64,000 nt of DNA from Acidimicrobiaceae bacterium (GTDB lineage Bacteria > Actinomycetota > Acidimicrobiia > Acidimicrobiales > Aldehydirespiratoraceae): NCBI GenBank assembly GCA_028820455.1, contig JAPPJC010000081.1, positions 14,807-78,806 of the forward strand, read 5' to 3'. Each line of letters opens with the position of its first letter. The stretch's first letter is position 1. Shown here in pieces: positions 7,306 to 46,073 of this stretch. The notes under the pieces were generated by a model that was given only the letters and a program-made list of their open reading frames with translations, did no database searches and was not told the DNA's origin. A program made the translations under genes and the position numbers.

Positions 7306-7482
7306 GGACAAACATTATGTGCCCGAGTTTTGTCGGTAATTCCGGTCGATGGTCGAGGGAATCCGCAACGGTCAGGTGGACAAACATTATGTGCCCGAGT
7401 TTTGTCGGTAATTCCGGTCGATGGTCGAGGGAATCCGCAACGGTCAGGTGGACAAACATTATGTGCCCGAGTTTTGTCGGTA
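7306..7482. repeat. Perfect 72-bp tandem repeat, 2.46 copies (X33-Y39-X33-Y39-X33)
   Basis: GGACAAACATTATGTGCCCGAGTTTTGTCGGTA starts at 7306, 7378 and 7450. The full 72-bp unit is repeated without any mismatch. It lies between the nfu start (7187, minus) and tRNA-Arg (7644, plus). All reading frames stay open because 72 is a multiple of 3. Confidence 0.95.
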
Positions 7483-7643
7483 GGACTTTGTTTCTGGTGG
7501 ATACCATCCCGAGTTGTGTTTTCTGAATCAAGTAGGTGTTTTCTTCTAAAGTCGCATAGTTCTCGGTTGGTCTATTTTGCTGAGGTAAACATGGCTTGGG
7601 AATGGGCTATGATTATTGTGACTATAGGTTACTTAATGTGCTT

Positions 7644-7718
7644 GCCCTCGTAGCTCAGTGGATAGAGCATCGGTCTCCTAAACCGTGTGCGCAGGTTCGA
7701 CTCCTGCCGGGGGCACCA
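7644..7718 (+). tRNA. tRNA-Arg (anticodon CCT), CCA encoded
   Basis: Cloverleaf folded by hand. Acceptor GCCCTCG/CGGGGGC, D arm GCTC..GAGC, anticodon stem TCGGT/ACCGT(G) with loop CTCCTAA, T arm GCAGG-TTCGACT-CCTGC, then ACCA. Confidence 0.9.
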
Positions 7719-7790
7719 TACCATTAGGTGACAGACAAGTAAGACAACAAATGTTCAACATGAAAATATAAGAAAAGATAAGGAGTGATC

Positions 7791-8327
7791 ATGAAAATTC
7801 TTTTTCGAGGGGCAGGCCTTTATCTTGTCCTAGTGGCTGTAGCAGTGACAGTGCAGTTTTTTGCTTTTCCATTCTATGCATATGATGCCGCAGACAAACT
7901 AATAGAAGATGGATCGGCTATGACGGTATGGCTAGTGCTTGACTGGTTTATGGCAGTTGGCCTTGTTATCGTAGTTATAACCGCTTTAGCAGGTAAGAAG
8001 TTCATTGATATAGAATCTCGCCTCAATGAAAAGCACAAGAGTGGGTCTGCTGAAGCTGGTTGTTGCAATACTGCTGACAGTGCTGGTTGTTGTGATAGTG
8101 GTGATAGTTGTGGCGACCCAAAGAAGTGGATAGAAGCAAATGTGATGTTCTACGGTAGTGTGATATTAACGATTGCTTTTGTTCCCAACTGGTTTGAGGT
8201 GGTATGGGGAGCCAGCCCCAACTGGACGATCTGGCATATTATCGATTCTGTACTACCAGTCATATTCGTAGTTCAGGCTCTTCGCATCTGGCGGGCAGTA
8301 AGCCAGAAAGAGGGCATGGACAGTTGA
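7791..8327 (+). CDS. Hypothetical 4-TM membrane protein with a cysteine-rich loop (GCC..GCC..C)
   Basis: ORF 7785..8327. The ATG at 7791 is preceded by AAGGAG at 7780-7785. The loop AEAGCCNTADSAGCCDSGDSCGD lies between TM2 and TM3 and is encoded by an imperfect 27-bp repeat. Confidence 0.7.
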   Translation: MKILFRGAGLYLVLVAVAVTVQFFAFPFYAYDAADKLIEDGSAMTVWLVLDWFMAVGLVIVVITALAGKKFIDIESRLNEKHKSGSAEAGCCNTADSAGCCDSGDSCGDPKKWIEANVMFYGSVILTIAFVPNWFEVVWGASPNWTIWHIIDSVLPVIFVVQALRIWRAVSQKEGMDS

Positions 8328-8610
8328 AATCTTGTCGAAAACAAGTTTCGATTCAGACAAATCAGCGACAAATCAGCATTGCCAGGAAACTAGAAGTTGC
8401 TGGTTTTAGGCTAACACTTTACCATGCCGGGCTGGCTTGCTGATGTCTTGTCATTTTGGACTCATTTCTCCGACCCCAACAGTATGGAACTGCTATATCA
8501 GGCCTGGCTTGCTTTTCAGCTAGTTTTCACTTTGCTTGCCGCCTTGCTTGTTTAGCTTGAATAACCCTACTGCCCTATTGTGAGTCCTGCTTACACAGCA
8601 CGAGAAATAC

Positions 8611-10113: not shown

Positions 10114-10219
10114 TGATATTGTGTAGTCCCTTCTTAATCTCAATTTATGCATAGTAGCGCACTTATTTTGAATCCAACTTTGAATTCAGCATTACGCAAA
10201 TTGTGAAGGCGAAAAAAGT

Positions 10220-11482
10220 TCAACCCCACTGATCTTTAGAGCACACAAATGCCGTCCCGAGCCCTTTTAGGTTGATTAGTTCTTCTGAAAAAGAAATCCA
10301 TGCTGCTTGACCTCGTTCAAGGGTGAGATTATTGACTTGAACACGGCCATTGGTACACAACAATATAGCAGGACCACTTTGAATGGCAGTAGAAAAGTCG
10401 GATTGCAGTTCTATTCGTGTAAGCGAGAATTCTGTGGCGTGGGATTCATAAGTGGTAATTCCGTGAGTTGTTTTGGGTTGTTGTATTTCTATCGCCAATG
10501 GGGTTGTGTCGATGACCTCGAGCAAGGTGTTGATATCAGTGTGCTTGCTAGTGAGACCGCCACGTACAACATTGTCTGAGCAGGCCATTACCTCTACTGC
10601 AGAACCACGCAGATAACAGTGAGGTGTTCCCGGGGGTAAAAACATTGCTTCACCTGGCCTCAATATAATATAGTTCAGCAGTAAAGACACAATTACACCA
10701 GCGTCTTGCGGATAATGTTCTCCTAGCTTGATAGCAGTGGTCAGTTGCCTTATCCACTGCTGCCAGTGGTAGGAAGTGTCGGCCACTTCGGTGTTTGAGT
10801 CTGCTGGGATTCTCGTTTTGTCAGTATCGGTTGTCCAGGGGGATGTGTCGACATTTCGTGCAACAATTTCCGAGCATACTCGCAGCATAGAGTTTAGAAG
10901 CATGGCAACTTCAGTTTTTTCTAACGACAGCAACCAACCAACTAGAGCGTGTAGTCCTTGTGGTGAAAGTTTTTTCCGCAATTGATCGCGCATTGGATCG
11001 AGTTCTTTTGAATGAATAGTATCCAAAAGGGCTAGCGTAAACTGAACGTCACGAAAGCCACATAACAATTCAAAAGAGGTGAGTGCACAAACCAGCTCAG
11101 GTTTATGGCAAGAATCCCGAAAGGATCGCTTAGGAGAGTCGATTGGAATTCCCATAGCTTGTTCACGTTTGAATCCTTCTTGAGCTTGCTCAACAGTTGG
11201 ATGAACCTGTAGAGATAGAGGATGTTCCACAGCCAGGACTTTCATCAAGAATGGAAGATTTTTTGATGTCGATGTGATATCAGAGCCAAGTAAATTGTGT
11301 GGATCCTTGGAAATCAGAAGGTTTAAAGGTTTGTCGTCCACTGTGGCTGGAGCTGTGGGATGTGCGCCTAACCACAATTCCGCCCAAGGCTTGCCGTTTG
11401 GGGGTAGCCCAAGCAGATGAGGGATAACAGTAGGCGATCCCCAGTCATAATGCCGCACTACTCCTTTCAATATTTTTACCAT
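10220..11482 (-). CDS. manA: Mannose-6-phosphate isomerase, class I
   Basis: MVKILKGVVRHYDWGS..., LSLQVHP and HCYLRGSAVEVMACSDNVVRGGLT are typical type I PMI motifs. Start chosen at 11482; the ORF extends to 11509. Confidence 0.9.
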   Translation of the reverse strand: MVKILKGVVRHYDWGSPTVIPHLLGLPPNGKPWAELWLGAHPTAPATVDDKPLNLLISKDPHNLLGSDITSTSKNLPFLMKVLAVEHPLSLQVHPTVEQAQEGFKREQAMGIPIDSPKRSFRDSCHKPELVCALTSFELLCGFRDVQFTLALLDTIHSKELDPMRDQLRKKLSPQGLHALVGWLLSLEKTEVAMLLNSMLRVCSEIVARNVDTSPWTTDTDKTRIPADSNTEVADTSYHWQQWIRQLTTAIKLGEHYPQDAGVIVSLLLNYIILRPGEAMFLPPGTPHCYLRGSAVEVMACSDNVVRGGLTSKHTDINTLLEVIDTTPLAIEIQQPKTTHGITTYESHATEFSLTRIELQSDFSTAIQSGPAILLCTNGRVQVNNLTLERGQAAWISFSEELINLKGLGTAFVCSKDQWG

Positions 11483-11571
11483 GATCGTAATTAGAGTAGC
11501 CCACAACAATGCTCAGAAGTATATACTCATAAATCCTGAGATACTGTGCAACACAGCCTGATAGCACAGAT

Positions 11572-11790
11572 TTATAAGTCGTTCTCCTTTGTTTTATTCT
11601 TTAGGCGTTGATGTCCGGTATCATTGATTGGTTGTGCTTCCCCCACAAGCATGACTGGAATACCGTCGACTATCCGATAAAGTAGCTTCATACGGGGATT
11701 GTAAAGACACTTTTCGTCTTCGAAGTAAAGTAGCGGGCCCTTGTCTGCGGGGCATGCCAATATTTTCAACAGCGATAAGTCAAGTGCCAT
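11572..11790 (-). CDS. Trm112-family small zinc-ribbon-like protein
   Basis: MALDLSLLKILACPADKGPLLYFEDE...YRIVDGIPVMLVGEA matches the Trm112/UPF0434 pattern. Its position between manA and pmm is as in other actinobacteria. Confidence 0.8.
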   Translation of the reverse strand: MALDLSLLKILACPADKGPLLYFEDEKCLYNPRMKLLYRIVDGIPVMLVGEAQPINDTGHQRLKNKTKENDL

Positions 11791-11846
11791 TTTGTTGCCA
11801 TTTTGTTCGCGATTCAAGTTGCCACAGGTCAAGTTTTAGTGGCATT

Positions 11847-13223
11847 TCAATGATCGACATCTGGTTTAGCCGCTTCTGACAAAACCAGAGTTTGTATTTG
11901 TTTGACTCTATCTTCTACGATAGCAGGTGTATCCGCTTCTAGGTTCAGCCTCAACAGTGGCTCTGTATTCGATGGTCTGAGATTAAACCACCACTTGTGA
12001 CAACGGACGGTAAGACCGTCAAGGCGATCTTGATCTTCGCCGTTGAAATAGGCGGCCACTCTGTTGATCACAGAGTCTACATCGGATACTTGCATGTTGA
12101 TTTCCCCTGAAGCTGAGTAGCGGTGCAAAGGCGCGATCGAATCGCTGAAACTTTCTTCATGTCGACTAAGAGCTTCCAAAACCAAAAGAGTGGCAATCAT
12201 CGCACTGTCAGCATTGTAGTTGTCTTTGAAATAGTAGTGACCGGAATGTTCACCACCGAATGCAGCACCAGTGGACCTCATAAGTTGCTTCATGAAAGAA
12301 TGTCCCACTCTACTTCGCACAGCTCTCCCCCCGTTTTCTGCTATAACTTCAGGCACAGAAGCGGAGCAGATCAAGTTGTGAATGATGACGCTTTTTGGTT
12401 CACGCTGAAGTATTTCCTTGGAGATTAAAGCGGTTATAAGAGATCCTGATAGTACTTGTGCTTTTTCATCTACTACGAACACACGGTCTGCATCTCCATC
12501 GAAAGCCAAACCAATGTCAGCTGATGAGTTCAAGACTTGATTTTGTAGGTCTAACAAGTTTTTTGGCTGGAGCGGGTCGGCGGGATGGTTGGGGAAGGTT
12601 CCGTCAAGTTCGGGGTACATCACATCAAGTTGAAAAGGCAACCTGTCGAACACGGCTGGAACTACAAGCCCGGCCATACCGTTAGCAGCATCTACCACAA
12701 CTCTAAGGGGTCGCAAAACAGATTTGTCTATGAAAGCCAAGACATGATCCACATAGTCGGAGAGCATGTTCTGATTAGTAACGGTGCCAGGTATTGCTAC
12801 CGAAGGCGATGTACGCTTTTTCGCTAAAGTTTTGATTTCCTCAAGTCCGGTAGCAGCACCGATGGGAGCAGCCCCAGCCCCACACAGTTTGATGCCGTTG
12901 TAACCTACCGGGTTGTGTGAAGCTGTAAACATCGCACCAGGTGTGTTGAACAAGCCTGATGCGAAGTAAACCATTTCTGTGGCACACAAGCCGATGTCAA
13001 CAACGTCTATGCCCGCATCAACAATTCCAGCGGTGAACGCTTTCAACAGTTCAACACCATCAGGACGCATATCGCGCCCCACTACTATCCTTGAAGCCCC
13101 GAAGTTTTTGACATAGTTGGCGAATGCAGTTCCTATTCGGTTGCAAATCCCAGTGTTCATCTGGTCGTCGACAGTGCCGCGGATATCGTAAGCTTTGAAA
13201 ATAGTGTCGAGGTTGTTATTCAC
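11847..13223 (-). CDS. manB: Phosphomannomutase/phosphoglucomutase
   Basis: 458 aa. Contains the active-site TASHNP, the Mg site FDGDADR and GGEHSGHYYF. The start overlaps the stop of the upstream gene by 4 nt (ATGA). Confidence 0.92.
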   Translation of the reverse strand: MNNNLDTIFKAYDIRGTVDDQMNTGICNRIGTAFANYVKNFGASRIVVGRDMRPDGVELLKAFTAGIVDAGIDVVDIGLCATEMVYFASGLFNTPGAMFTASHNPVGYNGIKLCGAGAAPIGAATGLEEIKTLAKKRTSPSVAIPGTVTNQNMLSDYVDHVLAFIDKSVLRPLRVVVDAANGMAGLVVPAVFDRLPFQLDVMYPELDGTFPNHPADPLQPKNLLDLQNQVLNSSADIGLAFDGDADRVFVVDEKAQVLSGSLITALISKEILQREPKSVIIHNLICSASVPEVIAENGGRAVRSRVGHSFMKQLMRSTGAAFGGEHSGHYYFKDNYNADSAMIATLLVLEALSRHEESFSDSIAPLHRYSASGEINMQVSDVDSVINRVAAYFNGEDQDRLDGLTVRCHKWWFNLRPSNTEPLLRLNLEADTPAIVEDRVKQIQTLVLSEAAKPDVDH

Positions 13224-16200
13224 TTTTGATGCTTAAGTGGGTTGGCGACAGTACGTGTTTTCGTTGTTCTAGCACCTTGCAGAAAAAGTAATCCGATTAT
13301 TATGAGTCCGATGAGTGTGCTTAAGTGCGAGAACCGTTCGACACTGCTGTAGTCATAATAGAGGCTCACTTCGGTTTTTGTGGGCACTACAACCATGAGG
13401 TTGGGTGTAACTCGGTACGGCCCTTCTGCGCCTTCTACAGACCAGTTGGGGAAAAATGATGTACTGACCAATACTGGTACACCCACGTTGCTGACTGAGA
13501 AGGATATCCGGTGAGGCTGGTATTCTGTTCCGGTTACCTCGGTTGTGGCAGTGATTGCATGACGCGGTAGTTCATTGTTCAGCGTCTCGGCTAAGTGGAG
13601 CATCTTTTTCTTTCGGGGTGTATCACTTTGACGGGGCGAATTAATTGGTTCATCAATGTTGAAATCTTCGACAAGTGAAGCCATTGCTACCTTGGGCCAT
13701 TCGATTGGACCCTCAGATGCGAGTAATGGAATACTGTCATCTGCTAGAAATGCCCCCACGCCAACTGTTAGCCAGTCGTCTGCTGAGTTAGGTATGTCCT
13801 CCACTACTACAGGCAACGTGCTTAGAGGTTTTATCCGCTCACTATCGGCTACCGAGAATATGACCCACGGACCAGAAGTTGCTATTTCGGTTAGTCCAGT
13901 CGTTTGACGTGCTTGATTCACCGCTTCGGAAGAGAGAGCCAGGTAGTAGCGCACACCCAAGAGTTTTAGATGTTCCAAGCCTTTGGCTACATCAAGATTT
14001 GAGTATGGCAGATCGCGTTGAGCGCGTGAAGGTGCTGCTGAAAGTTCTGACTGCATCAAAAAATGGTAAGGTGTTGTAGCGGATGACTCAAAATAGAGGC
14101 CTTCCATTGATCCAATGCATCTATCGGTATAGTGTGGTAAAAGCATTGCCGCCATTGGCGAACCGTAAGAGTTGAGCTTTCCTGCTTCGTATTCCCACAG
14201 AGATGGGCCGCAACCGTAATCGGAGCCCACAGCTTGTAACGTTTCGATTAGGTTTTGGTATTCAACTAGGTCTTGGTGTTCAACATACCTGCTATCAGAT
14301 TCTTCTGCTGGTCTTTGTTGGTATCCTCTGTAGTTGTATTCAACCCAGTGTGGGCCAGGATTGGCATATAAATTGCGTCCTATCGTACTGATAATCAGGC
14401 CGATGGCTAGCAGAGTGGCCGCGAATCCGAGTCCTGCAGTCCACCCTCTATCCAATGTGTTTTCGACTGCTTGTCCTGTGACAATGGCTTTTCTCAAAAA
14501 AGCAGTGAAGAACCGCAGGATCTCACCCAGTCCGAGCAAGGCCAAGGTATATACCAGGAAGTAGTAGAAGGGAAGCAACCGGGTGTTCCATAGTCGTCCC
14601 TCAGGAAGCAGTATAAAGCCCACAGCGAAAATTAGTGTGGTTACAGCTAATACCACTATGAAATGGTTGCGACGTCGGAAAAGAACCTGAACGAATCCTA
14701 TAACTGCTGCCAATGCTGCCAATACAACAAAAACCTGCAAAACAGGCACATTCACCAAGAAGGTCTCATCAAATTGTGACCGAGACCACAGTGCAGACAG
14801 GTAGCTTCGCCTTTTTACCCAGCCCATGTTATTGTACATTGCCCGATTCCACCAAAATGGCAATACCCACCAACTGCTCAAGGCTGCGGCTAATGCCCCC
14901 ATCGTAATTGTCCACCGAAAAACCGTTTTGTCGCGAAGCATCGTTAGAGCTTTTTTAGTGGTTCGGCTATTCTTCGTGATGGGTTGTTGCCTTTTGAAAT
15001 ACTTGTAATGCCAGGGAAGTATTAGGAGCATGGCTCCAGTGGCTGCAAGAGCTAAGAAAGCTGTGATTAGATGAGTCAGGCCGGTGAGTGCCAACAGTAT
15101 GGCAGCAAGAATTTTATGGTTGCCTGTTTTCATACCGTGGAATGCCACGCCCATATAGAAAACTGCGCAAAGCAAGCCGAGAGAATAGGCGAACTCCCCT
15201 GCCATGGTAGACATCAGATTGCCGCCGTAGATATTCTGCGAACGGTCGAACACGAACAGAACAGCAGCTACCGCCGCTAGAGCAGGACCTGGAAAAGCAA
15301 CATCTGCCAGACGCGCCATTGTGTAGGCAGCTATTGGCAGGAACACGACTCCGGCTATACCTACCAGTTTTATGGCAACTTCGTAAGGTACCGGAATAAT
15401 GAGCAAGATCGAAACCACTGCCAGTGTTGTTATGGGCAAGCGAAAATATCGCCAGTGAACACTGAGAGTTATAAAATTGTAAAGTCTTTGTGGGAGTACT
15501 GACCGAGCTAGACTAAAACTTAGCGTGGTTGTGTTGTTGTTGCCGTTATCTGTTGAGCCGAGGCCATCTCGTTTCGCAGGCTTCTGAGATGCAGTTTTAC
15601 GACTTTTTGAAAATTGTGCTGCACCTGGAGATGTAAGAGCCGTCGCTGTCGGTGAATGTGAAAATGAAGACCACACCAGCCGCCCACAAGCTATTGGAAG
15701 TAGTACGCAAGCTAGAAACAAGTCTACTGATGTGTCATTATAAGTAAATTCAAATAATTCAAATAATATAAAAGATACGGTACGGCCATCCAAACTATTT
15801 AAAATCACTGATATTACAATTGCTGCTAGAGCAGCAATCAGACTTGCCAGAGGAGCAAACAGGCTGTTAAGAGGTGGTGGAAAGTTGATGATGTGCAACT
15901 TTTCCTGCTTAGTTCTCAAGTAGCTTGCTATATTCCAGGCAATCATCCCTCCGCTCAAGCTCATGGCCATTAACGCGTAAATGCCCATAGAAATTTGTGA
16001 ACTGACATTCAAGATCACAATCAAAATAAATGGGGTCACCATGTAAAAAGTGAAAACAGGAAACCCTACATACCAATCATGTGACCATCCGGTAAGACGT
16101 AACTCACTTAAGAGTACATCACGCAGATAAGCGGGAGCCCACACGTGAGCTGCAAAGTCGCCACCAGTTGGCATCGTATCCAGAACCCATAGCCATGGTC

Positions 16201-16357
16201 TTGTGTTTACAACCACGAATAGCGTGGCGAGGGTCACGATACAAGTCGTGGTAAATCTTTCAATCTTTTGGATGGAAGCCATATCAGATAGCACCACATT
16301 AGAAGAATTCGCGTGTGATGTCACTGGTTTTCTCACCTCTTGCTCAGCCATCATCAT
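13220..16357 (-). CDS. Large polytopic membrane protein with C-terminal extracytoplasmic domain; putative GT-C-type glycosyltransferase
   Basis: 1045 aa with many TM segments across residues ~40-640. The first-loop motif is MPTGGDFAAHVWAPAYLRD. A soluble domain of about 350 aa follows, then a terminal TM anchor. The gene is translationally coupled to pmm. The functional assignment is inference. Confidence 0.85.
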   Translation of the reverse strand: MMMAEQEVRKPVTSHANSSNVVLSDMASIQKIERFTTTCIVTLATLFVVVNTRPWLWVLDTMPTGGDFAAHVWAPAYLRDVLLSELRLTGWSHDWYVGFPVFTFYMVTPFILIVILNVSSQISMGIYALMAMSLSGGMIAWNIASYLRTKQEKLHIINFPPPLNSLFAPLASLIAALAAIVISVILNSLDGRTVSFILFELFEFTYNDTSVDLFLACVLLPIACGRLVWSSFSHSPTATALTSPGAAQFSKSRKTASQKPAKRDGLGSTDNGNNNTTTLSFSLARSVLPQRLYNFITLSVHWRYFRLPITTLAVVSILLIIPVPYEVAIKLVGIAGVVFLPIAAYTMARLADVAFPGPALAAVAAVLFVFDRSQNIYGGNLMSTMAGEFAYSLGLLCAVFYMGVAFHGMKTGNHKILAAILLALTGLTHLITAFLALAATGAMLLILPWHYKYFKRQQPITKNSRTTKKALTMLRDKTVFRWTITMGALAAALSSWWVLPFWWNRAMYNNMGWVKRRSYLSALWSRSQFDETFLVNVPVLQVFVVLAALAAVIGFVQVLFRRRNHFIVVLAVTTLIFAVGFILLPEGRLWNTRLLPFYYFLVYTLALLGLGEILRFFTAFLRKAIVTGQAVENTLDRGWTAGLGFAATLLAIGLIISTIGRNLYANPGPHWVEYNYRGYQQRPAEESDSRYVEHQDLVEYQNLIETLQAVGSDYGCGPSLWEYEAGKLNSYGSPMAAMLLPHYTDRCIGSMEGLYFESSATTPYHFLMQSELSAAPSRAQRDLPYSNLDVAKGLEHLKLLGVRYYLALSSEAVNQARQTTGLTEIATSGPWVIFSVADSERIKPLSTLPVVVEDIPNSADDWLTVGVGAFLADDSIPLLASEGPIEWPKVAMASLVEDFNIDEPINSPRQSDTPRKKKMLHLAETLNNELPRHAITATTEVTGTEYQPHRISFSVSNVGVPVLVSTSFFPNWSVEGAEGPYRVTPNLMVVVPTKTEVSLYYDYSSVERFSHLSTLIGLIIIGLLFLQGARTTKTRTVANPLKHQK

Positions 16358-20689: not shown

Positions 20690-20791
20690 TGTTGACTGTC
20701 TACCACTACCTGTTTTTATTGGCATTTGCTTTTTCCTTGTTCTGCGGTTTGCCGTCTCATCTGTTGACTGTTTGCCACTACCTGTTTTATT
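20690..20791 (+). repeat. Imperfect 31-bp direct repeat, period 72 bp, each copy carrying a promoter-like TTGACT-N17/18-TATTxx; upstream of the first GT4 gene
   Basis: 20690-20720 TGTTGACTGTCTACCACTACCTGTTTTTATT versus 20762-20791 TGTTGACTGTTTGCCACTACCTGTTTTATT (2 mismatches, 1 indel). The second copy ends 11 bp before the ATG at 20803. Confidence 0.8.
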
Positions 20792-20802
20792 AACATAGCA
20801 GT

Positions 20803-27003: not shown

Positions 27004-27104
27004 GTTGTGTGCATGGTTGAGTTACATCTCATGCTCAGTTTGATGGGGCGGTAGGCTTCGGGTGCTTCAGTTGTGTGCATGGTTGAGTTACATCTCATGC
27101 TCAG
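27004..27104. repeat. X-Y-X module: perfect 35-bp direct repeat flanking a 31-bp unique core
   Basis: GTTGTGTGCATGGTTGAGTTACATCTCATGCTCAG occurs at 27004-27038 and at 27070-27104. The core at 27039-27069 is TTTGATGGGGCGGTAGGCTTCGGGTGCTTCA. Each X contains a GCATG...CATGC hairpin. The module lies between the manC stop and the galE start. Confidence 0.95.
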
Positions 27105-28171: not shown

Positions 28172-28172
28172 A

Positions 28173-30891: not shown

Positions 30892-31791
30892 TTATCTACC
30901 ATGTGGTGTTTGATTTCTGTAGTATCCAAGGAGATCGCGTAATGTTGCATCCAAAGAGATTGCAGGTTTCCAGCCTGTAGCCTTCTGCAGTTTTTCCGGG
31001 TTTCCTCTGACTTCCGGGACATCTATCGGTCGCATCAGAGTGGGATCAACTTCTATGTGCATGTCATGAGACGCTTTTTTTAACAGTAGTTCGGCTAGTT
31101 CTTGTATTGTATGTGATTTACCGTTGCAGATGTTATAAACTTCACCAGGTTCACCTGCAACGGCAAGCATCCGATAAGCCCTGACCACATCACGGACATC
31201 CGTGAAATCGCGTCGGGCAGCAAGGTTGCCTGCTCGCACTATTTTAACCCCGGAACGTTCATTGGCTGTTATCTGTGCTGCTATAGATGAAGCCACAAAG
31301 CGGTTATTTTGGCCAGGACCGAGGTGATTGAATGCGCGGGTTCGTATTATGTCTGTCCCCTGTGCGAAACCGGCTTGCAAACTGAGTATTTCAGCGGCAG
31401 CTTTACTGGCTCCGTAAGGCGTTACAGGTCTTAAGGGTGCAGTTTCACTCACTGGGAGTTGGGTGGGGTCAACCTGCCCGTAGACGTCGGCACTTGATGT
31501 GACGAGCACACGCTGCACATTGGAATTGTGGGCAGCCTCGAGCACGTTATAGGTGCCTTCAATGTTCACTCGTAGTGTCTCAATAGGTGCTTTCCAACTC
31601 AGAGCTATATCGGCTTGAGCTGCAAGATGGTAGATGATTTCAGGACGATGATGCTGAAACTCAGCAGCAATTGCGTTGCGATCTGTGATATCGGTACATG
31701 AGGTAGTGACATCGTCACCCAAGGAGCACAGGTGAACCACTAGATGTTTGCCCACGAATCCCGATGCTCCAGTTACCAGTACTTGTGCCAT
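30892..31791 (-). CDS. NAD-dependent epimerase/dehydratase, probable GDP-4-keto-6-deoxy-D-mannose reductase (Rmd-like)
   Basis: 299 aa SDR with VTGASGFVG and TPYGASK. It lies immediately upstream of gmd, with a 6-bp gap. The specific activity is inferred from context. Confidence 0.8.
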   Translation of the reverse strand: MAQVLVTGASGFVGKHLVVHLCSLGDDVTTSCTDITDRNAIAAEFQHHRPEIIYHLAAQADIALSWKAPIETLRVNIEGTYNVLEAAHNSNVQRVLVTSSADVYGQVDPTQLPVSETAPLRPVTPYGASKAAAEILSLQAGFAQGTDIIRTRAFNHLGPGQNNRFVASSIAAQITANERSGVKIVRAGNLAARRDFTDVRDVVRAYRMLAVAGEPGEVYNICNGKSHTIQELAELLLKKASHDMHIEVDPTLMRPIDVPEVRGNPEKLQKATGWKPAISLDATLRDLLGYYRNQTPHGR

Positions 31792-31870
31792 GGTTTCATT
31801 GAAAAGTGATGTGGGCGCAGCATACTGAGGTTGATCGAAGGCCAGTTACCAGTACTTGTGCCGTGGTTTC
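31769..31870 (-). repeat. X-Y-X module: the first 29 bp of the Rmd-like gene region (including its ATG) is duplicated 73 bp upstream with the ATG changed to ACG
   Basis: 31769-31797 CCAGTTACCAGTACTTGTGCCATGGTTTC versus 31842-31870 CCAGTTACCAGTACTTGTGCCGTGGTTTC (1 mismatch). The unique core between them is 44 bp. Confidence 0.9.
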
Positions 31871-35000: not shown

Positions 35001-35258
35001 ATCGCTCCTTCAGTCGATTTAAGGGATACTTCTTCTGTGGCAACGACTTCAACTGATTTTGCGGAGAAAGACTCTTCATGTTCAACAGCTGAGTTGTTGG
35101 AAAATGCAGATATCAGGCTTTCCTACTCATCGCCATGGTGGCGAAAATCAAGTCAGATATTCGGGGTTGCTGTGTTGCTGGTGCTTATTTCAGTGCGGTT
35201 GAGAAGTCGAATGACAATCCGGCAAAATCAAGAATCCAGCAGAATCAGCCAAACATGA
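32055..35258 (+). CDS. Family 2 glycosyltransferase fused to a large polytopic membrane domain
   Basis: 1067 aa. The N-terminal GT-A domain has VVVAHNPDEGFEETLESLTRQDY and LLCHDD, followed by more than 10 TM segments. The stop overlaps the next start (ATGA at 35255-35258). Confidence 0.88.
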   Translation: MSSHSKASSGGVLSVLAVVVAHNPDEGFEETLESLTRQDYEQLSVVIVDTVGRSTGVPVEATPLSPDNAGSSDMAATEDLDDPSDAGDLKRRVRSVIREAAIITAPGVSGFSAAVNTVLSTDLHASFLLLCHDDMVLEPDTVTKLVEQAKQNDASLVGPKLMHKDQPEIIESVGYEVDRFGAKSDMTGSSELDQEQHDSMRDAFAISTAAMLIDKDIFVRIGGCDPAMKYRGYDVDLCWRARMAGARVIVAGDAKVHHRGRIATSSEAADDHFTFLNAENLRSMLINHGRISLLIFMPLALLISVAEIILAVFTGRIRRVRTVFADWTWNLTRLTDVLKRRRANARVRQVRQADVAALQYLGSIRLTSFMRQRFDSNNIGKAGGFFSSTGRGLLNCFSIGQARVVWLVWVLIVSAVLFGSRSLIISGVSAVGDFASFPSSADDLLNSWWSGWSERETGAPSSNLGGLFWLGALGFLLELIGGSMGLVRTLWVLTPVFVGLIGIYHMMSRAGSYKAQLGALIAYSLIPLAPASIASGSIAGLVAYAVAPWFLGMGFSALGITPFGADGVVGSKKLKWYGGLLSDVWRLGLCAGIASLFVPSVMGLLIVTAAGLIIGSLQVGRLSGIFRLLVATVASLLFGLSIVFPFTVDMVVAGPDWQLFADGRDGSAMSVSLSEILTFTVGPNDKGLRVWFLFIPMFLPLLLGRNWRFDQSVRFWMVALVSWGLAFASQHGILGVGLPDVHLLIAPAAAAAAGLCGMAVLSVEHDLRMSHFSYRQFLVPIAAAGLVLLAMGTIGILEDGRWGLVGRDHQTVLRFESEDLSGDYRVLWIGVPEFLGVEGRHLDNGLAWAVTSGGRITIADRSITADPGMADPIKTTLEGIVAGDTIRGGRCLADFGVRYVVLVHRLAPAPFPSQQKISPAVSSVWIEAFNSQLDMQQVQGINSALTLLNNTSWAPSLDLVDVDIGNANSMDGITFAGPTTSDIAPSVDLRDTSSVATTSTDFAEKDSSCSTAELLENADIRLSYSSPWWRKSSQIFGVAVLLVLISVRLRSRMTIRQNQESSRISQT

Positions 35259-36907
35259 TTCCAAGACCGGCTAATTATGATTCATTCACTGGAAGACTTC
35301 GTTCCGCTCGTGTTCTGTCTTTGATTATGATCGTCGGAATGCTAGCAGGGGCTGCGGTAATCGATTTACGAGATCGCCCGTTTTTTGATCATTTGGAGAT
35401 TTCTAGCAATTCATTGACCAACATGTCAGGGCCGATGGTTGCATGGTTTTGCCCGGGAGGCAGCAACCAAGACGGCATGGCAGAGCTGACCATTGAGTTA
35501 TTCAATGCAGCTCGTGTTACACGTGATGCCACTATTACGGTTATACCGGATTCTTTGCCAGCAGCTCAACTTACCACTAAGGAAGCAGATTTTGATCACT
35601 CCTTTTCTATTTCAATTCCTTCACAAAAAAGGGTTCTGCTACCTTTAGGCGTTGAGCTTCCTGAAGCGCAATGGGTTGGAGCGGTAGTTGAGGTTGCCAG
35701 CCCCGATGTTATCGTCGAGCAAATCATCAGCGACAAGCATGGTGGTGCTGGACGTTCAAGTTGCCTGACACGCACATCTACACAATGGATTCTGCCTCAT
35801 GGTGCTACTCGCTTGGAAGCCGAGGGTGAGCAACTATTTCTGATGCTTCTCAACCCTTATCTTGATTTCGCGGTCGTCAATATCGAAATGCTCAGCGATT
35901 ACGGTCATGATTCCATTGAAAGTCTTGTAGTGCCAGCTGGTGAAGTAGTGAAAGTGGATGTGACAGACGAGTTACCTGTTGCTGATACAGTCACCTTGTA
36001 TGTTGAAGCAATATCCGGTCGTGTAGCTGCTTCCTGGATTCAATTAGTCGATGGCCCCAAATCGGGAAAAGGCACGCAAGTGGCAACCGCTATACCGCAT
36101 GTTGCTCCATTATGGTATATTCCGTCAGCAGGCGTGGATACTCAACGACGTGATGTAGTTGCCGTTACCAACCCTTCGACAGATCGAACTGCTGCTGTGG
36201 ATATTGAGGTTATCACCGATCAACCTGATGTCACGATTGATCCTATAGAGCTGACCATAGCCCCCCGACAGACAGAACTGGTTAATTTGCAAACCCAAAA
36301 TAGGTTGAAAGGTTTCAATGACTTTACAGTAGTAGTTCGTTCTCTTGAAGGTTTACCTGTGGCAGCTTCTATTACGAGTATTGTCGGCGATGCTGCAGTC
36401 CTACCGGAATTCACTAGTAGTTCGATAGACGTGACTGATGCGCTGGATTCCGACAGCCCTATTGACAGTTTTGAAGATGATCAAACCACTTATTCGCTGC
36501 AAGACAGAATAACACCAGGAGCTACCGCTACAATCGCCGCTGATGCAGCCGCCAAGGAATGGCTGTTGCCGGTAGAGGTTTCAGCTGTTGGCAACATGGA
36601 TAAAAGCGATAATGGCACAGTTGACTTAGATGCCGACGTTTCCAGTGTGGCTATCGTGAATCCATCATCGAGTATCATCGCTTTGGTTGATTTAATTGTC
36701 AATGATGTGACGATTCGTTCGCTTGAATTGGGGCCACAACAACGTGCCCGCTTTCCATTGGCTTGGTTTGCTTCAGGCTATTTCATTCTGGAAATAGAAG
36801 CATCATCACCGGTTATAGCTGGTAGTGAGCTAATAGGGTTGACATCTCGTGTTGCGTCTTTAGGTGTGGCTACCTCCGAGCCCGTTCCTCTGTCCATCCT
36901 TCGTTGA
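35255..36907 (+). CDS. DUF5719-like secreted/anchored protein, partner of the large GT2
   Basis: The ORF starts at 35135, but the ATG at 35255 gives MIPRPANY...VLSLIMIVGMLAGAAV (signal anchor) and is coupled to the GT2 stop. The family call is from memory of the conserved actinobacterial GT2-DUF5719 pairing. Confidence 0.75.
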   Translation: MIPRPANYDSFTGRLRSARVLSLIMIVGMLAGAAVIDLRDRPFFDHLEISSNSLTNMSGPMVAWFCPGGSNQDGMAELTIELFNAARVTRDATITVIPDSLPAAQLTTKEADFDHSFSISIPSQKRVLLPLGVELPEAQWVGAVVEVASPDVIVEQIISDKHGGAGRSSCLTRTSTQWILPHGATRLEAEGEQLFLMLLNPYLDFAVVNIEMLSDYGHDSIESLVVPAGEVVKVDVTDELPVADTVTLYVEAISGRVAASWIQLVDGPKSGKGTQVATAIPHVAPLWYIPSAGVDTQRRDVVAVTNPSTDRTAAVDIEVITDQPDVTIDPIELTIAPRQTELVNLQTQNRLKGFNDFTVVVRSLEGLPVAASITSIVGDAAVLPEFTSSSIDVTDALDSDSPIDSFEDDQTTYSLQDRITPGATATIAADAAAKEWLLPVEVSAVGNMDKSDNGTVDLDADVSSVAIVNPSSSIIALVDLIVNDVTIRSLELGPQQRARFPLAWFASGYFILEIEASSPVIAGSELIGLTSRVASLGVATSEPVPLSILR

Positions 36908-37801: not shown

Positions 37802-37808
37802 AACTTTG

Positions 37809-39878: not shown

Positions 39879-39906
39879 ATCAACTAAGTCTTTTTGTCGG
39901 TAACGC

Positions 39907-42199: not shown

Positions 42200-42443
42200 T
42201 TGCTTTTCTCTTGTTGTTTAGGTGGGGATTGTATGCTATCTTGTGACAGCAGTTGTGTTAGGTATAACAGACTGACAGAACTTACGGAAATAGTTGGTAA
42301 AGTTTGCAGCTACTAATCCATGTGTAGCCTATTGTAAGCAGAAACTTTCGAATATAAACAGAACATGCTGAAATCTCCTATACAAGAGGTTGACGTAAAT
42401 TGCTCAGCACTACACTGCTAGTTCGTATCGTCGATAATGTTCT

Positions 42444-45311
42444 CTACTTTTCATTTGTGCTTGCGATTTTTACTTCTGTCTTGGAGTCGGCCCAAGTGCG
42501 TACTGCTTTCAGATGCACGTCCAGATGTACATCCAGCTTGTAAAAGTCAGGCATCGCACTAACACCACGCATCACGCTGGAAACCAGCTTTGAAACCTCT
42601 TCCACTTCGTGGATGGGGGTTTCCAGAATGATCTCGTCGTGAACTTGCAAAACGATGCGCGATTTGAAGTTTTTCGTCTCTAAAGAGTCGTCTAAACGGA
42701 TTAATGCCATTTTGAAAATGTCAGCTGCTAGGCCTTGTACACAGGTACTTATAGCTTGACGTTCTCCTGCTTGACGGCGACGCCGATTAGGACTTCGCAG
42801 TTCAGGTATCTGCCTACGTCTGCCGAATAATGTTTTGGTGTAGCCACGTTCTCGGGCTTCTTCTATTGTTCGGTCTATGTATGCTCGCACACCAGGAAAT
42901 GTTGAGAAATAGGTTTCAAGAATTTTAGCGGCTTCACTGGTATGCAAGTTGAGACGTGTCCCTAGACCGTGAGCTTCCATTCCATAGATCAAACCGTAAG
43001 ACACCATTTTTGCAGTTGCACGTTTTTGAAGGTCTACTTCCTCGGGAGTTATATCAAATAACCATGCTGCAGTTGTGGTGTGGACGTCTTCTTCGGATTC
43101 GAAGGCTGCTATCAGCCTCTCATCTTGCGATAGGTGGGCTATGCAACGCAATTCTATTTGATCATAATCTGCTACTATCAGCAGAGAGTCTTCAGGTGCT
43201 GTGAAAGCGGCACGGAATTCCCGGCCTCTTGCAGTTCGAACAGGAATGTTGTGCAGGTTCGGATCGTCGGAGCTAAGACGTCCGGTGCGAGCCACTGTCT
43301 GGTTGAACTTAGCATGAATACGTCCATTCCCGCCGATTTTTTTAAGCAGACCTTCACCATAGGTTGAGCGTAGTTTTTCAGCTTCACGATACTTCAATAT
43401 GTAGTCGACGATTTTGTGGCTACTTCTGAGTTTTTCTAAAGTTTGAGCGTCAGTTGACAATCCCCCTGTTTTCGTTCGTCGCTTGGTAGGGGGGGTGAGC
43501 CCTAGGTCTTCAAAGAGCAACTTACTCAGCTGTTTCGGGGAGTTAACGTTTATTTTATATTCAGCTGTCGACAGTATTTTTTCACGTAATTCTTCTGCTT
43601 CGATAGTCAATTTGCCACGGATGCGTTGCAGTGCTTGCTCGTCTACTTTGATGCCTATATGTTCCATGCGTGCCAACACACGCATTAATGGCATTTCAAA
43701 TCTGTTATAAAGGCTGTCTAGCTTTTCGGTTTCGAGTTTATCGGATAGAGCAGTTTCAAGACGATTCACTGCTAAAGCAGACCATGCAGCATCGTCTATT
43801 GCAGTGGTGACAGTAGTAGCTTCACTATTGCTGCTGAGATTGTCTAAATCAAAACTGCATTGACCTTCTGTCGGTGCAGTTGCCTCTGCGGATTTGGAGG
43901 GCAGATCGAGGTTTGCATAGCGAGGAGCTAGATCACTTAATTTGTAGCTGTATGCAGATGGGTCAAGCAAGTAGCCGGCCAGCATTGTGTCGAATGCTGA
44001 AACGCGTATGTCGATACCATGATCAAGCAAAGCACGCATCATTGCTTTAGCGTCATGCATAGCAAGAAAATGCGAGTCTTCAACTGTAGTCTTGCTGATG
44101 CTTTGGCAGCTATCGTGGTTGCCTTGAGTGCTTGTAGATGCTACCAAGTTGTTGAAGGCTTGCACGACTTTAGTGTCATATAGCAGTTCACCTGCGATGA
44201 ACTGCACCTTGTCCACGGTACTGTCCACCACTAAAGCGAGTCCGGTTGTGAGCCCGTCGGCTGACATTGCCATTGCCAAAGGTGCATTAGTCGTTGTTGC
44301 TTCTGCTTTTCGGTTTAGAAGTTCAAGCCGCAAATCGGTCAGGATTCTGACTGCTCTTTTTGCGGTGTCGACAACGCTTATTTTTGGTTTGATTGCCTTA
44401 CTACCGGTAGTCCAGTAGTCGTTCACATTGACACCAAGCACTTCAGCCAGGGGTTTTCTCAACGTCCGAAATTCTAGGTCGTCAAAAAGCTTGATTAATT
44501 TTGTTTTATCGTGGTCACTTTTCTGCAGGTCTTCGATTTTCTTGTCAAGGGGAACCTCACGAACTAGTTGCATGAGTTCAACGTTGCGTCTTACCCGCTG
44601 TTCGGCGTTGGCGAGATTTTCTCTTAATCTGGGGCTGGTGATGGTATCTAGTTCAGTGTAGATTCGGTTGAGTGTTCGTTTTTCGTTCACTAGTTTTGCG
44701 GCGGTTTTATCTCCCACACCGGGCACTCCTGGCAGGTTGTCGCTTTTATCGCCACGCAAGGCCGCATACAGTACGTAATCTGCGGGCGTAACACCTGTGC
44801 GTTGCCTTACACCAGCCTCGTCGTAAGTTATGTGATCGGCTTTTTTGCTTTTGCTGAAGCGATAGAAAACTTGGATGAAAGGATCTTCCACAAGCTGAAA
44901 AATGTCTTGATCACCGGAGTCTATAAGAACTTTAAGACCAGCATCACGGCCCTGGGTTGCCAAAGTGGCGATCAGATCGTCTGCTTCGTAGCCAGCTTTT
45001 TCCACAATAGGCAGTGCTAAAGCTTTAAGCACATCTTTAATGGTGCTCATCTGCTTGATGAGGCTGTCGGGTGTGGTTTGTCGAGTAGCCTTGTAGTCAG
45101 GAGTGATTTTGTGACGAAATGTCGGCTTAGGGAGGTCAAAAGTTATGACAATTTGTTTCGGCTTGCATTCACGCCACTGGTCGAGAAGTATTTTCACAAA
45201 ACCATAAACAGCGTTGGTAGCTTGCCCAGAGGTTGTATACATGTGCCCTTGTAAGGCGTAGAAAGCTCTATAAGCAAGCGAATTGCCATCTATTAGCAAA
45301 AGATCAGCCAT
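42444..45311 (-). CDS. polA: DNA polymerase I
   Basis: 955 aa. The N-terminal 5' nuclease begins LLIDGNSLAYRAFYA. The polymerase motifs are DYDQIELR (motif A), the RRQAKxxNFG-like RATAKMVSYGLIYG, and QVHDEI (motif C). Confidence 0.97.
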   Translation of the reverse strand: MADLLLIDGNSLAYRAFYALQGHMYTTSGQATNAVYGFVKILLDQWRECKPKQIVITFDLPKPTFRHKITPDYKATRQTTPDSLIKQMSTIKDVLKALALPIVEKAGYEADDLIATLATQGRDAGLKVLIDSGDQDIFQLVEDPFIQVFYRFSKSKKADHITYDEAGVRQRTGVTPADYVLYAALRGDKSDNLPGVPGVGDKTAAKLVNEKRTLNRIYTELDTITSPRLRENLANAEQRVRRNVELMQLVREVPLDKKIEDLQKSDHDKTKLIKLFDDLEFRTLRKPLAEVLGVNVNDYWTTGSKAIKPKISVVDTAKRAVRILTDLRLELLNRKAEATTTNAPLAMAMSADGLTTGLALVVDSTVDKVQFIAGELLYDTKVVQAFNNLVASTSTQGNHDSCQSISKTTVEDSHFLAMHDAKAMMRALLDHGIDIRVSAFDTMLAGYLLDPSAYSYKLSDLAPRYANLDLPSKSAEATAPTEGQCSFDLDNLSSNSEATTVTTAIDDAAWSALAVNRLETALSDKLETEKLDSLYNRFEMPLMRVLARMEHIGIKVDEQALQRIRGKLTIEAEELREKILSTAEYKINVNSPKQLSKLLFEDLGLTPPTKRRTKTGGLSTDAQTLEKLRSSHKIVDYILKYREAEKLRSTYGEGLLKKIGGNGRIHAKFNQTVARTGRLSSDDPNLHNIPVRTARGREFRAAFTAPEDSLLIVADYDQIELRCIAHLSQDERLIAAFESEEDVHTTTAAWLFDITPEEVDLQKRATAKMVSYGLIYGMEAHGLGTRLNLHTSEAAKILETYFSTFPGVRAYIDRTIEEARERGYTKTLFGRRRQIPELRSPNRRRRQAGERQAISTCVQGLAADIFKMALIRLDDSLETKNFKSRIVLQVHDEIILETPIHEVEEVSKLVSSVMRGVSAMPDFYKLDVHLDVHLKAVRTWADSKTEVKIASTNEK

Positions 45312-45801
45312 AACGTAAATCTACTTTCAGAGAGACCAAATTAATGCATGCTACGGCAGTGTGTTCATAATGTGGTGCTGCTGGTTGTACTTGGAAGCCG
45401 GATGGCAACACCCACCCGGCCACCCAGTGTAGCAGTGGACTGAAGCCATACCTGCCGCGGCGAGCATTCAGACTCTCATACTAACCGATAACCAGCCTAA
45501 CTGATAACCAACTGATATCAGAATACACTGACAAGGTAAAGAAGGGTTGGGATTGGTGTGTGTTTCGGAGCGTGCTGGGGTGTGTGAGAGGAACCGTCTC
45601 AGAGTAGGAACCCGTAGTCCTTTCAACCAGCGGCCGCTCTCTGCTTGTTCTTGAGAACGAACCACATGTCGCTGCACGTCTCACCCTCACCAGCGGCGGC
45701 CAGCATCATCAGCTTCAACACTGCACCCCGATCGAACACCGGCACACCGGCACCCCAAAACCCCCACAGACACCCAACTACGTGAAACATCAAGGATAAA
45801 G

Positions 45802-45885
45802 TACCCGGAGAGGGATTCGAACCCTCACGCCCTCACGGGCGGCGGATTTTGAGTCCGCTGCGTCTTCCAGTTCCGCCATCCGGGC
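45802..45885 (-). tRNA. tRNA-Leu (anticodon CAA), long variable arm, CCA not encoded
   Basis: The reverse complement folds as GCCCGGA-TG-GCGG..., anticodon stem GCGGA/TCCGC with loop CTCAAAA, variable arm CGCCC-GTGA-GGGCG, T arm GAGGG-TTCGAAT-CCCTC, and acceptor TCCGGGT (G1-U72). Confidence 0.88.
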
Positions 45886-45973
45886 GGGTCAAGCTACGAT
45901 GGCACATTCTAAGGATAATGTCTTTGTTGGCCTTGTCAGCAGTTTATTGTTAAGACAGTGTTGCTAGGACACC

Positions 45974-46073
45974 TTTCAGCACTTTGTGATCTTTTGACAT
46001 TCTTTGGGAACCGTGTGCGCAGGTTCGACTCCTGCCGGTTTCAGCACTTTGTGATCTTTTGACATTCTTTGGG
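45974..46073 (+). repeat. X-Y-X module: perfect 35-bp direct repeat flanking a 30-bp core that is an exact copy of part of tRNA-Arg(CCT)
   Basis: TTTCAGCACTTTGTGATCTTTTGACATTCTTTGGG occurs at 45974-46008 and at 46039-46073. The core at 46009-46038 is identical to 7681-7710. Confidence 0.95.
46009..46038 (+). other. tRNA-Arg(CCT) gene fragment (last anticodon-loop base, variable loop, T arm, first 3 nt of 3' acceptor strand)
   Basis: AACCGTGTGCGCAGGTTCGACTCCTGCCGG matches the intact gene 30/30 in the same orientation. It has no 5' half and no acceptor end, so it is not a functional tRNA. Confidence 0.9.

Follow-up and report, generated by a model that had tools for sequence, protein, structure and literature searches.

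A 64,000-nt stretch of the genome of an Acidimicrobiaceae bacterium (contig JAPPJC010000081.1 of assembly GCA_028820455.1, positions 14,807 to 78,806; this whole stretch is called the window below) contains five loci at which a direct repeat, X, encloses a core, Y, to form an X-Y-X structure of about 100 nt. The loci are spread over some 40 kb that include a surface-glycan cluster with GT4, galE and rmd-like genes, as well as genes for tRNA-Arg and tRNA-Leu, and noncoding DNA makes up 11.2% of the window. PolA (encoded at 42444-45311) is 100% identical to an NCBI protein of an Acidimicrobiaceae metagenome-assembled genome, the next best PolA being 60% identical, and the nearest species in GTDB are sponge-symbiont Acidimicrobiia (Candidatus (Ca.) Aldehydirespirator and Ca. 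Poriferisocius), at 48-55%; a cyanobacterial origin, suggested by GC content, was rejected on these grounds.

All five loci of a preliminary description, together with the geometry assigned to them there, were recovered in the window by Tandem Repeats Finder and a repeat finder (Table 1). When every offset from 20 to 300 was scanned for exact runs of at least 14 nt, the five X-Y-X loci and one 51-bp tandem were found and nothing else, and block shuffles of the window gave about one 12-nt run per trial. The two X copies are perfect at three loci and diverged at loci 2 and 4, and comparison of the X sequences bore out the earlier statement that they are mutually unrelated. By direct reading of the sequence, the junctions at loci 3 and 5 are free of microhomology. 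In length, all five X are of the size of repeats, and all five Y of the size of spacers, in CRISPR arrays.

Four of the five loci lie in divergent intergenic regions and the fifth between two co-directional genes. The earlier placing of all five in intergenic DNA 5' of genes needs correction at locus 4, which is not purely intergenic, as X overlaps the start of the rmd-like gene; on the minus strand this X reads GAAACC ATG GCA CAA GTA CTG GTA ACT GG, which is 6 nt of leader followed by the first 23 nt of the minus-strand rmd-like epimerase gene. Three loci had also been assigned to the surface-glycan cluster. They do lie there, but not in excess over expectation, and chance together with the tolerance of intergenic DNA can explain their placement.

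Table 1 Coordinates and geometry of the X-Y-X loci and of related features (window positions unless another contig is named)
Feature	Position	Strand	Geometry	Remark
Locus 1, whole	7306-7482		X33/Y39, period 72	2.46 perfect copies
Locus 1, X copy 1	7306..7338		33 nt	Duplicated target; perfect copies at 7306, 7378, 7450
Locus 1, Y	7339..7377		39 nt	Core; identical repeat at 7411-7449 in this assembly; found only in this array
Locus 1, rest (X-Y-X)	7378..7482			One 72-nt unit here assembly-dependent
Source of locus 5 Y	7681..7710	+	30 nt	In tRNA-Arg(CCT) gene (7644-7718), from anticodon-loop-adjacent base to 3' acceptor strand
Locus 2, whole	20690-20791		X31/30, Y41, offset 72	2 mismatches and 1 indel between X copies
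Locus 2, X copy 1	20690..20720		31 nt
Locus 2, Y	20721..20761		41 nt	Core; unique in window
Locus 2, X copy 2	20762..20791		30 nt	Ends 11 nt before GT4 start codon
51-bp tandem	26721-26821	+	51 bp x 2.0	Perfect; in frame, 17 codons, in left-handed beta-helix (LbH, hexapeptide-repeat) domain
Locus 3, whole	27004-27104		X35/Y31, offset 66	Perfect
Locus 3, X copy 1	27004..27038		35 nt
Locus 3, Y	27039..27069		31 nt	Core; unique in window
Locus 3, X copy 2	27070..27104		35 nt	44 nt upstream of galE
Locus 4, whole	31769-31870		X29/Y44, offset 73	1 mismatch between X copies
Locus 4, X copy 1	31769..31797	-	29 nt	Live start of rmd-like gene
Locus 4, Y	31798..31841		44 nt	At least the distal 26 nt unrelated to the corresponding stretch of L090
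Locus 4, X copy 2	31842..31870	-	29 nt	Start codon ATG -> ACG
Locus 5, whole	45974-46073		X35/Y30, offset 65	Perfect
Locus 5, X copy 1	45974..46008		35 nt
Locus 5, Y	46009..46038	+	30 nt	Exact copy of tRNA-Arg(CCT) positions 38-67, sense
Locus 5, X copy 2	46039..46073		35 nt
New event in relative L091	L091 1884-1992		X30/Y47	Equivalent to window 20791-20822
Event in L029 (another species)	L029 14302-14402		X30/Y41
Event in L018 (another species)			X37/Y33

Independent assemblies of the loci

The window belongs to an NCBI metagenome-assembled genome (MAG), and it was compared with an ENA reassembly (ERZ23495530; contigs L002, L004 and L007) of sample SAMN13943214, with Logan k=31 contigs of SRR10996926 (L001, L003, L006 and L008) and with a long-read-style assembly (ERZ25069580; L005 and L092, 99.4-99.9% identical to the window), so that at least two data sets are represented. 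Loci 3 and 4 are carried by L002, which differs from the window by one mismatch in 10 kb, and the X35-Y30-X35 of locus 5 is found in L092 base for base. The Logan contig L003 begins at 27075, so that it takes in exactly the final 30 nt (k-1) of X copy 2 at locus 3, and then traverses the diverged locus 4 unchanged; L001 likewise opens with exactly the final 30 nt (k-1) of X copy 2 at locus 5, X being a perfect 35-nt repeat at both loci. A k=31 graph behaves in this way when the reads really lead from X into two different sequences. The agreement of the assemblies and the k-1 breaks therefore exclude an assembly artefact as the cause of the existence of the X-Y-X structures.

An artefact of assembly, scaffolding or amplification had been one of the readings offered in the preliminary description, and two observations lend it some colour: the copy number of locus 1 varies with the assembler, and a scaffolding artefact of similar appearance exists in the MAG of a relative. 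However, four differently made assemblies agree at base level, the k=31 contigs are interrupted precisely in the perfect 35-nt X copies and yet pass through the diverged locus 4, loci 2 and 4 carry mutated copies (including the loss of a start codon), and loci 2 and 5 were found again in other samples. The artefact reading is thus essentially refuted and we give it a very small probability. The copy number of locus 1 is a separate matter. The 2.46 copies described before are indeed present in the window (177 nt, X-Y-X-Y-X), but scaffold_3070 of the ENA reassembly (L007, same sample; MEGAHIT-style) has 1.46 copies (105 nt, X-Y-X), and the additional unit may still be an assembly artefact. A short X-Y-X repeat in a MAG may thus be genuine and need not be noise from the assembler, but short-read assemblies are not a reliable guide to the copy number of perfect 70-bp units.

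The artefact in the related MAG, which was made with SPAdes, is a 55-nt sequence on both sides of 100 N (X55-N100-X55; L019 21992-22201) that arose from the overlap of contig ends at k=55; as a mimic of X-Y-X it is a useful negative control. Two contig ends of the ENA reassembly were also noted. Scaffold_1714 ends in a 50-nt poly-C run (L004 1-50), an artefact of two-colour chemistry, and scaffold_3070 ends inside the tRNA-Arg gene (L007 1-16; window 7696-7681), 16 nt into the segment that is copied as the Y of locus 5.

Related strains and the history of the sites

Contigs of relatives were found by exact look-up of window proteins and, from these, of cluster members with at least 90% identity, which came from other samples and gave four contigs, L090 (Logan SRR33343633, about 94% identical), L091 (Logan SRR32085981, 94.5%), L092 (99.4%) and L093. 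Metagenome scans for empty-site strains with the X3/X5 pattern and the rmd-like protein returned no close relatives (at most 60% identity).

At locus 3, L090 has the flank, a single X and the other flank, and exactly Y+X (65-66 nt) is missing. This pair of a filled site in the window and an empty site in L090 is best read as an insertion, although strictly a deletion between two X copies in L090 would look identical; the single X in L090 also indicates that X is the native target sequence. The two X copies of the window are identical to each other, whereas the X of L090 differs by one substitution and one indel and the strains differ by 6%, and the duplication at locus 3 is therefore younger than the split of the strains.

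Locus 4 has a different history. In L090 a structure with the same 73-nt period lies at the same place, but its repeat unit is 47 nt, consisting of the 29-nt X and 18 nt of upstream leader, and its central 26 nt (AGCTGGCTTGTCTGTCCACCTGGTAG) are unrelated to those of the window (CGCAGCATACTGAGGTTGATCGAAGG); identity in the flanks is about 94%. One core may have taken the place of another, or overlapping targets were struck by two events, and the site appears to have been used more than once. Repeated acquisition and loss at a repeat pair would give just such a strain-specific core.

The X-Y-X of locus 2 is shared by L091 with a homologous Y (about 91% over 35 nt), so this event is old, in agreement with the mismatched X copies. 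At the start codon of the GT4 gene, abutting this older repeat, L091 carries a new event that is absent from the window: a 30-nt X, a 36-nt unrelated filler (CGATCTGCGCCAGCTTATCCGGTTCAAGTTTTATCA), an 11-nt partial X and again the 30-nt X. Locus 5, on the other hand, is common to the window and the 99.4% strain L092, which also carries the copied Y. The events thus differ in age and are polymorphic between strains; the process therefore spans evolutionary time and goes on in the lineage to this day.

Similar structures occur outside the close relatives. A long-read MAG of another Acidimicrobiales species (L029) has a clean X30/Y41/X30 with an architecture like that of locus 4, in which X holds the GTG start and the first codons of coaE (P-loop GGIGAGKST downstream). 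In L042, an X19-Y29/30-X19 unit (AGGGACGTGTCTGACACC...) is found twice, 9 kb apart (1691-1757 and 10639-10704); it is a small dispersed repeat within that MAG, in contrast to the loci of the window, each of which is unique.

The preliminary description had raised the possibility of minisatellites whose copy number tunes promoters. No sigma-70-like promoter was predicted inside the X-Y-X at loci 1, 3 and 5, the three loci scanned, and those predicted for tRNA-Arg and tRNA-Leu fall in the interval from the repeat to the tRNA gene. Through the insertion at locus 4, the rmd-like gene is preceded by a second copy of its own start. In L090 this upstream copy keeps its ATG, giving a 22-codon upstream open reading frame (ORF) that ends in TGA, with three bases separating this stop from the real ATG; in the window the same upstream ATG is ACG. 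This hints at selection on the consequences of the insertion and not at repeats kept as a regulatory device.

Sources of the cores and sizes of the events

The source of one core could be mapped. The Y of locus 5 (Y5; the other cores are numbered likewise) matches the tRNA-Arg(CCT) gene, 38 kb away, with 0 mismatches over 30 nt; it corresponds to positions 38-67 of the 75-nt gene, starting at the base after anticodon-loop position 37 and stopping 8 nt short of the tRNA 3' end. For Y1-Y4, no second match was found in the window at up to 3 mismatches and none in about 35 kb of further DNA of the lineage (about 100 kb of lineage DNA in all). The Y1/Y4 and Y2/Y3 pair patterns had no exact match in viral contigs, and 35-nt stretches of Y1 and Y4, the only two cores searched there, had none in a genome-contig collection from which the source MAG is absent or in which it is masked. 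Y1-Y4 are presumably captured fragments as well. Immediately 3' of the Y5 source the window has GGG (7711-7713), an NGG-type motif, and a Y of 30 nt with an X of 35 nt has type II-like dimensions; with one protospacer this is a lead only.

A tRNA gene and a partial copy of it 38 kb apart recall the attL and attR of an integrated island, and we considered this possibility. In integrated tRNA islands an integrase and accessory genes lie between the tRNA gene and the repeat, and the repeat reaches the 3' end of the tRNA. Between 7.7 and 46 kb, however, there are housekeeping genes (AdoHcyase, FtsH, UvrB, CoaE, RpsA and PolA) and no integrase, and therefore Y5 is not an island boundary; the tRNA 3' end is missing from Y5, too.

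Because Y5 lies wholly within the mature tRNA, an RNA route also has to be weighed, in which a reverse transcriptase, free or fused to Cas1, copies fragments of small RNAs that are inserted as complementary DNA (cDNA) or RNA at staggered nicks; Y5 would then stem from a fragment of the tRNA-Arg molecule and not from its gene. Cas1 fused to a reverse transcriptase acquires spacers from RNA, and position 37, directly before the first base of Y5, carries N6-threonylcarbamoyladenosine (t6A) in tRNAs that read ANN codons and is a common site of cleavage and of reverse-transcriptase stops. Nevertheless, we consider this route improbable. It can be argued from one mapped Y only, whose 3' boundary at position 67 is not the tRNA 3' end from which template jumping usually starts; E-value scans with Rfam gave no meaningful rRNA, tRNA, transfer-messenger RNA (tmRNA), RNase P or signal recognition particle (SRP) signal for the Y1-Y4 regions; no reverse transcriptase gene is present in the window or the accessible flank; and acquisition from tRNA genes at the DNA level is known without a reverse transcriptase (PMC8860600). 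The same Rfam scans disposed of Y1 as a fragment of SRP RNA and of Y2-Y4 as fragments of rRNA or other RNAs. In addition, X does not look like the 5' end of an mRNA, as expected of a run-off cDNA, since direct reading found no -10 motif suitably upstream of X at locus 4 or at coaE of L029.

Alignment of each Y to its flanks showed no similarity, and so the cores cannot be the diverged remains of a second tandem unit, an explanation that does hold for most short-range repeats in related genomes. This bears directly on the minisatellite reading (variable-number tandem repeats, VNTR, or mycobacterial interspersed repetitive units, MIRU, which arise when replication slips or crossing-over is unequal and whose copy number would tune nearby promoters). 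Locus 1 does differ by one unit between assemblies, contigs of two other assemblies are broken at the 51-bp tandem and the loci lie upstream of genes. On the other hand, slippage yields whole native units, whereas Y is unrelated to its flanks, is missing at the empty site of locus 3 and in one case comes from a tRNA gene 38 kb away; in a structure of 1.4-1.5 copies, a core unrelated to the flanks makes a slippage origin impossible. Moreover, the loci share no sequence, the three scanned loci have no predicted promoter, and true tandem repeats in relatives have a flank-like Y, unlike these loci. Since the one difference in copy number was seen between assemblies of the same sample, we see little left of this reading and regard it as very improbable.

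Mobile elements can be treated briefly. The cores are mutually unrelated and have no terminal inverted repeats, and therefore they are not miniature inverted-repeat transposable elements (MITEs), as the preliminary description had rightly stated. A MITE or an insertion sequence (IS) would also leave a target duplication of 2-14 bp, and here it is 29-35 bp.

The sizes of the events suggest a further distinction. Apart from the events with a foreign core, the lineage shows plain duplications. The largest of them, the 51-bp tandem, sits in an NDP-sugar (nucleoside diphosphate sugar) synthase gene (25939-26982) and has no foreign core, and is probably of a different class from the X-Y-X loci; its position in coding DNA means that recent duplications are found outside intergenic DNA as well. 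Two contigs, L002 from ENA and L090 from the 94% relative in Logan, begin inside this tandem, which is therefore probably present in both lineages and possibly variable in copy number, while its copies in the window are identical. In the foreign-core events X is 29-37 nt and Y 26-47 nt, whereas the plain duplications in the lineage measure 11, 13, 24, 33 and 51 nt; our own Fisher estimate from these counts, for narrow versus broad sizes, is p ~5e-4. The narrow X with a foreign core, against the broad range without one, argues for two classes of event and thus for two mechanisms.

Foreign-core events are also dense here. There are five per 64 kb (in 40 kb of the window), as compared with about four in 1.4 Mb around polA of 80 other Acidimicrobiia, when a comparable event is defined as X of at least 29 nt and Y of at least 26 nt with a core unlike the flanks. 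In diverse metagenome loci (0.6 Mb), five short-range repeats were found, none of them of that size. The short-range repeats of the controls were mostly ordinary, being low-complexity coding repeats or having a Y that resembles the flank.

Staggered double-strand breaks, formed by two nearby nicks on opposite strands, with fill-in of the long 5' overhangs duplicating X and with non-homologous end joining (NHEJ) of the Ku/LigD type trapping stray DNA or cDNA as filler (Y), would account for several features. Ku and LigD occur in many Actinobacteria; the plain tandems of 13, 24, 33 and 51 nt have no junction microhomology, are polymorphic between strains and would represent fill-in and ligation without filler; the X-Y-X junctions likewise have no microhomology; and the new event of L091, with its partial copy, is as untidy as one would expect. 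However, X is 29-37 nt in all eight or nine foreign-core events against 11-51 nt without a core, Y is limited to 26-47 nt, and break repair offers no reason for either limit. The tRNA source and the reuse of locus 4 with the same 73-nt period are left unexplained, and we know of no source of paired nicks about 33 bp apart. End joining is an unlikely explanation of the loci.

One apparent regularity was set aside. Across the eight events with X of at least 29 nt, 2X+Y takes values of 100-107 nt; the corresponding total for the 51-bp tandem is 101 nt. This constancy could not be derived from read length, k-mer collapse or the geometry of Cas1-Cas2; loci 2 and 4, whose copies have diverged, are not open to collapse, and a k=31 contig reproduces locus 4. 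A law of fixed total length (2X+Y ~102) weakens with further events, namely smaller ones in relatives (X18-23/Y29-44, total 67-83), the 47/26/47 structure of locus 4 in L090 and a 33-nt plain duplication, and the relation stays unexplained and is not used as evidence.

Other rearrangements were seen in the comparison. L092 has a 33-nt perfect tandem (7253-7285; single-copy at window 52389-52421) that includes the start codon of an amidohydrolase, whose predicted product is 582 as against 571 amino acids, and a 13-nt tandem duplication at window position 50227. A 22-nt segment (TGAGCTAACCCGAAATCTTTGT) present in L092 (7176-7197) and in L093 (6189-6209) is missing at window 52334-52347 and is bounded by an 11-nt direct repeat; its loss appears to be a direct-repeat-mediated deletion in the lineage of the window. 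At the 3' end of the gene for a 1067-aa GT2, 131 nt of the window (34929-35059) are missing in L090 (1024 aa), with TTGAT-type repeats flanking the deletion, and in the window this gene overlaps the next ORF (35135-36907) by 124 nt. Five ORFs of the window have no Pfam match at E <=0.001: 13220-16357 (-), the largest with 1045 aa, 3765-4565 (-), 4694-5257 (+), 5460-6137 (-) and 7785-8327 (+).

Proposed ectopic spacer integration and known systems

Of the readings in the preliminary description, a common insertion mechanism with a length ruler is the one that gained support, from the empty site at locus 3, the tRNA-copied Y5 and the limits of X (29-37 nt) and Y (26-47 nt). Transposases duplicate 2-15 bp of their target, and to our knowledge the only enzyme that combines a repeat-sized target duplication with an insert of 30-45 bp is Cas1-Cas2, the integrase of CRISPR adaptation. 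We therefore favour, with a probability of roughly 0.42, the explanation that the X-Y-X loci are off-target spacer integrations ("neo-CRISPR") by a Cas1-Cas2 whose activity we infer from its products. In each event a spacer-sized fragment (Y, 26-47 bp) would be taken from elsewhere in the cell and joined to the chromosome through a pair of nicks, one in each strand, that lie about 29-37 bp from each other; the filling of the two single-stranded gaps would then duplicate the target (X), and each X-Y-X would be the scar of a single integration. Two strand transfers about 33 bp apart followed by gap filling would produce a foreign insert, exact duplications and blunt junctions. Such scars may have accumulated in the permissive intergenic DNA of this sponge-symbiont lineage of Acidimicrobiia, where they may still be arising.

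Published work offers precedents for ectopic integration. Off-target integration by Cas1-Cas2 at non-CRISPR chromosomal sites has been shown in vivo (Nivala 2018, as described in papers that cite it), and off-target integration has also been seen in vitro (PMC6895254). The type III-A Cas1-Cas2 of S. epidermidis has acquisition hotspots at tRNA and rRNA loci, with acquisition confined to transcribed sequence, and spacers derived from tRNA and rRNA are counter-selected in real arrays (PMC8860600); a tRNA-derived insert would be harmless at an off-target site. The origin of Y5 fits ectopic spacer integration because tRNA loci are a documented acquisition hotspot of Cas1-Cas2. Furthermore, genes of defence systems, among which CRISPR-Cas is counted, are enriched in sponge-symbiotic Actinobacteriota (PMC11706023).

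Several observations weigh against this explanation. No cas gene, CRISPR array or reverse transcriptase was found in the window or in about 15 kb of extra flank, and the source of Y5 is the sole one mapped. Within one lineage X spreads over 29-37 nt, which is more than a strict ruler would permit and is not a near-constant duplication. Inspection by eye of the eight target sites in either orientation revealed no shared motif, although the off-target sites on record are similar to leader-repeat junctions. To give five events in 40 kb an integrase would have to be unusually promiscuous, the 11-nt stutter in the new event of L091 is untidy for an integrase, and X and Y are negatively correlated, which the geometry of Cas1-Cas2 does not predict. 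The spread of X is a softer objection than it seems, because off-target sites lack the motif that sets the second cut: for types I-E, I-B and II-A, the second integration takes place a set distance away from a motif that the repeat contains (PMC6895254). Our confidence is limited by the absence of a visible common motif at the sites, the irregular form of the L091 event, the negative correlation of X with Y and the putative status of the enzyme in this genome.

A stronger form of the same idea can be imagined, in which a highly promiscuous integration activity (a relaxed Cas1-Cas2 or RT-Cas1, or else an integrase not yet described whose target stagger is about 33 bp) repeatedly pastes self-derived, spacer-sized pieces, fragments of tRNA among them, into intergenic DNA and the starts of genes, reuses some of its sites, which leaves different cores in different strains (locus 4), and apparently follows a rule for 2X+Y (about 100-107 bp) that the known geometry of Cas1-Cas2 does not predict. 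We regard this form as doubtful. If true, it would mean that such an activity seeds new CRISPR-like repeat pairs and creates regulatory variation, for example upstream ORFs, at surface-glycan genes. The probability that is left after all these explanations falls to a mechanism not yet described. Ectopic integration by Cas1-Cas2, if true, would make these loci a natural record of the de novo origin of CRISPR arrays and of the genomic cost of adaptation, and would serve to test whether the hotspots of acquisition at tRNA and rRNA loci that are known from the laboratory are also at work in nature. Should Cas1 prove to be absent, an unknown insertion mechanism with a target duplication of 30-35 bp would be implied, which would be more surprising.

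Among known systems, mycobacterial MIRU/VNTR loci share with the X-Y-X loci periods of 50-100 bp, an intergenic position and an actinobacterial host. However, MIRUs are a homologous family of whole units, whereas the present loci have 1.4-1.5 copies, a foreign core and no shared sequence; with Y missing at the empty site and the loci unrelated to one another, they do not belong to this class. Repair by NHEJ or at paired nicks has in common with them duplication with or without an insert, the lack of microhomology and the coexistence of plain tandems of 13-51 nt, but it is a process without a length ruler, and here both lengths are narrow when a filler is present.

Canonical CRISPR arrays share the dimensions of the loci, in which the period is 65-73 bp, a repeat measures about 29-37 bp and a spacer-like core about 30-44 bp. 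They differ in that the loci have two repeat copies each, that the repeats are unrelated between loci, and that neither a leader nor cas genes are nearby, and on these grounds a canonical array was rejected. The two Ys of locus 1 are also identical, unlike the spacers of an array, which points to a secondary duplication or a choice of the assembler and not to two acquisitions. Type III acquisition from tRNA and rRNA (PMC8860600) resembles the present case in the tRNA-derived insert, and the strain-specific core of locus 4 is array-like.

The nearest likeness is to neo-CRISPR integration. In both cases a spacer-sized insert is accompanied by a repeat-sized duplication of ordinary chromosomal DNA outside arrays, the repeats differ from site to site and inserts are self-derived, here in the case of Y5. 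Nivala, Shipman and Church, in Nat Microbiol in 2018, reportedly saw their events in E. coli under overexpression of Cas1-Cas2, where the duplication was almost uniform in length, about 28 bp, and the sites looked like leader-repeat junctions, and are said to have listed a few natural candidates in Yersinia and Sulfolobus. The loci described here are unlike those events in being dense (5 in 40 kb), in having an X of 29-37 nt and no visible site motif, and in that the integrase is a putative one. As natural off-target integration has been shown mainly in overexpressing E. coli, with a handful of natural candidates, a lineage dense in such scars would offer more, with events of various ages that vary between strains, one of them matched by an empty site in a relative and another carrying an insert traced to a tRNA gene. 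The most likely reading of the loci is natural off-target CRISPR adaptation, a known but rarely observed process that is here found at unusual density.

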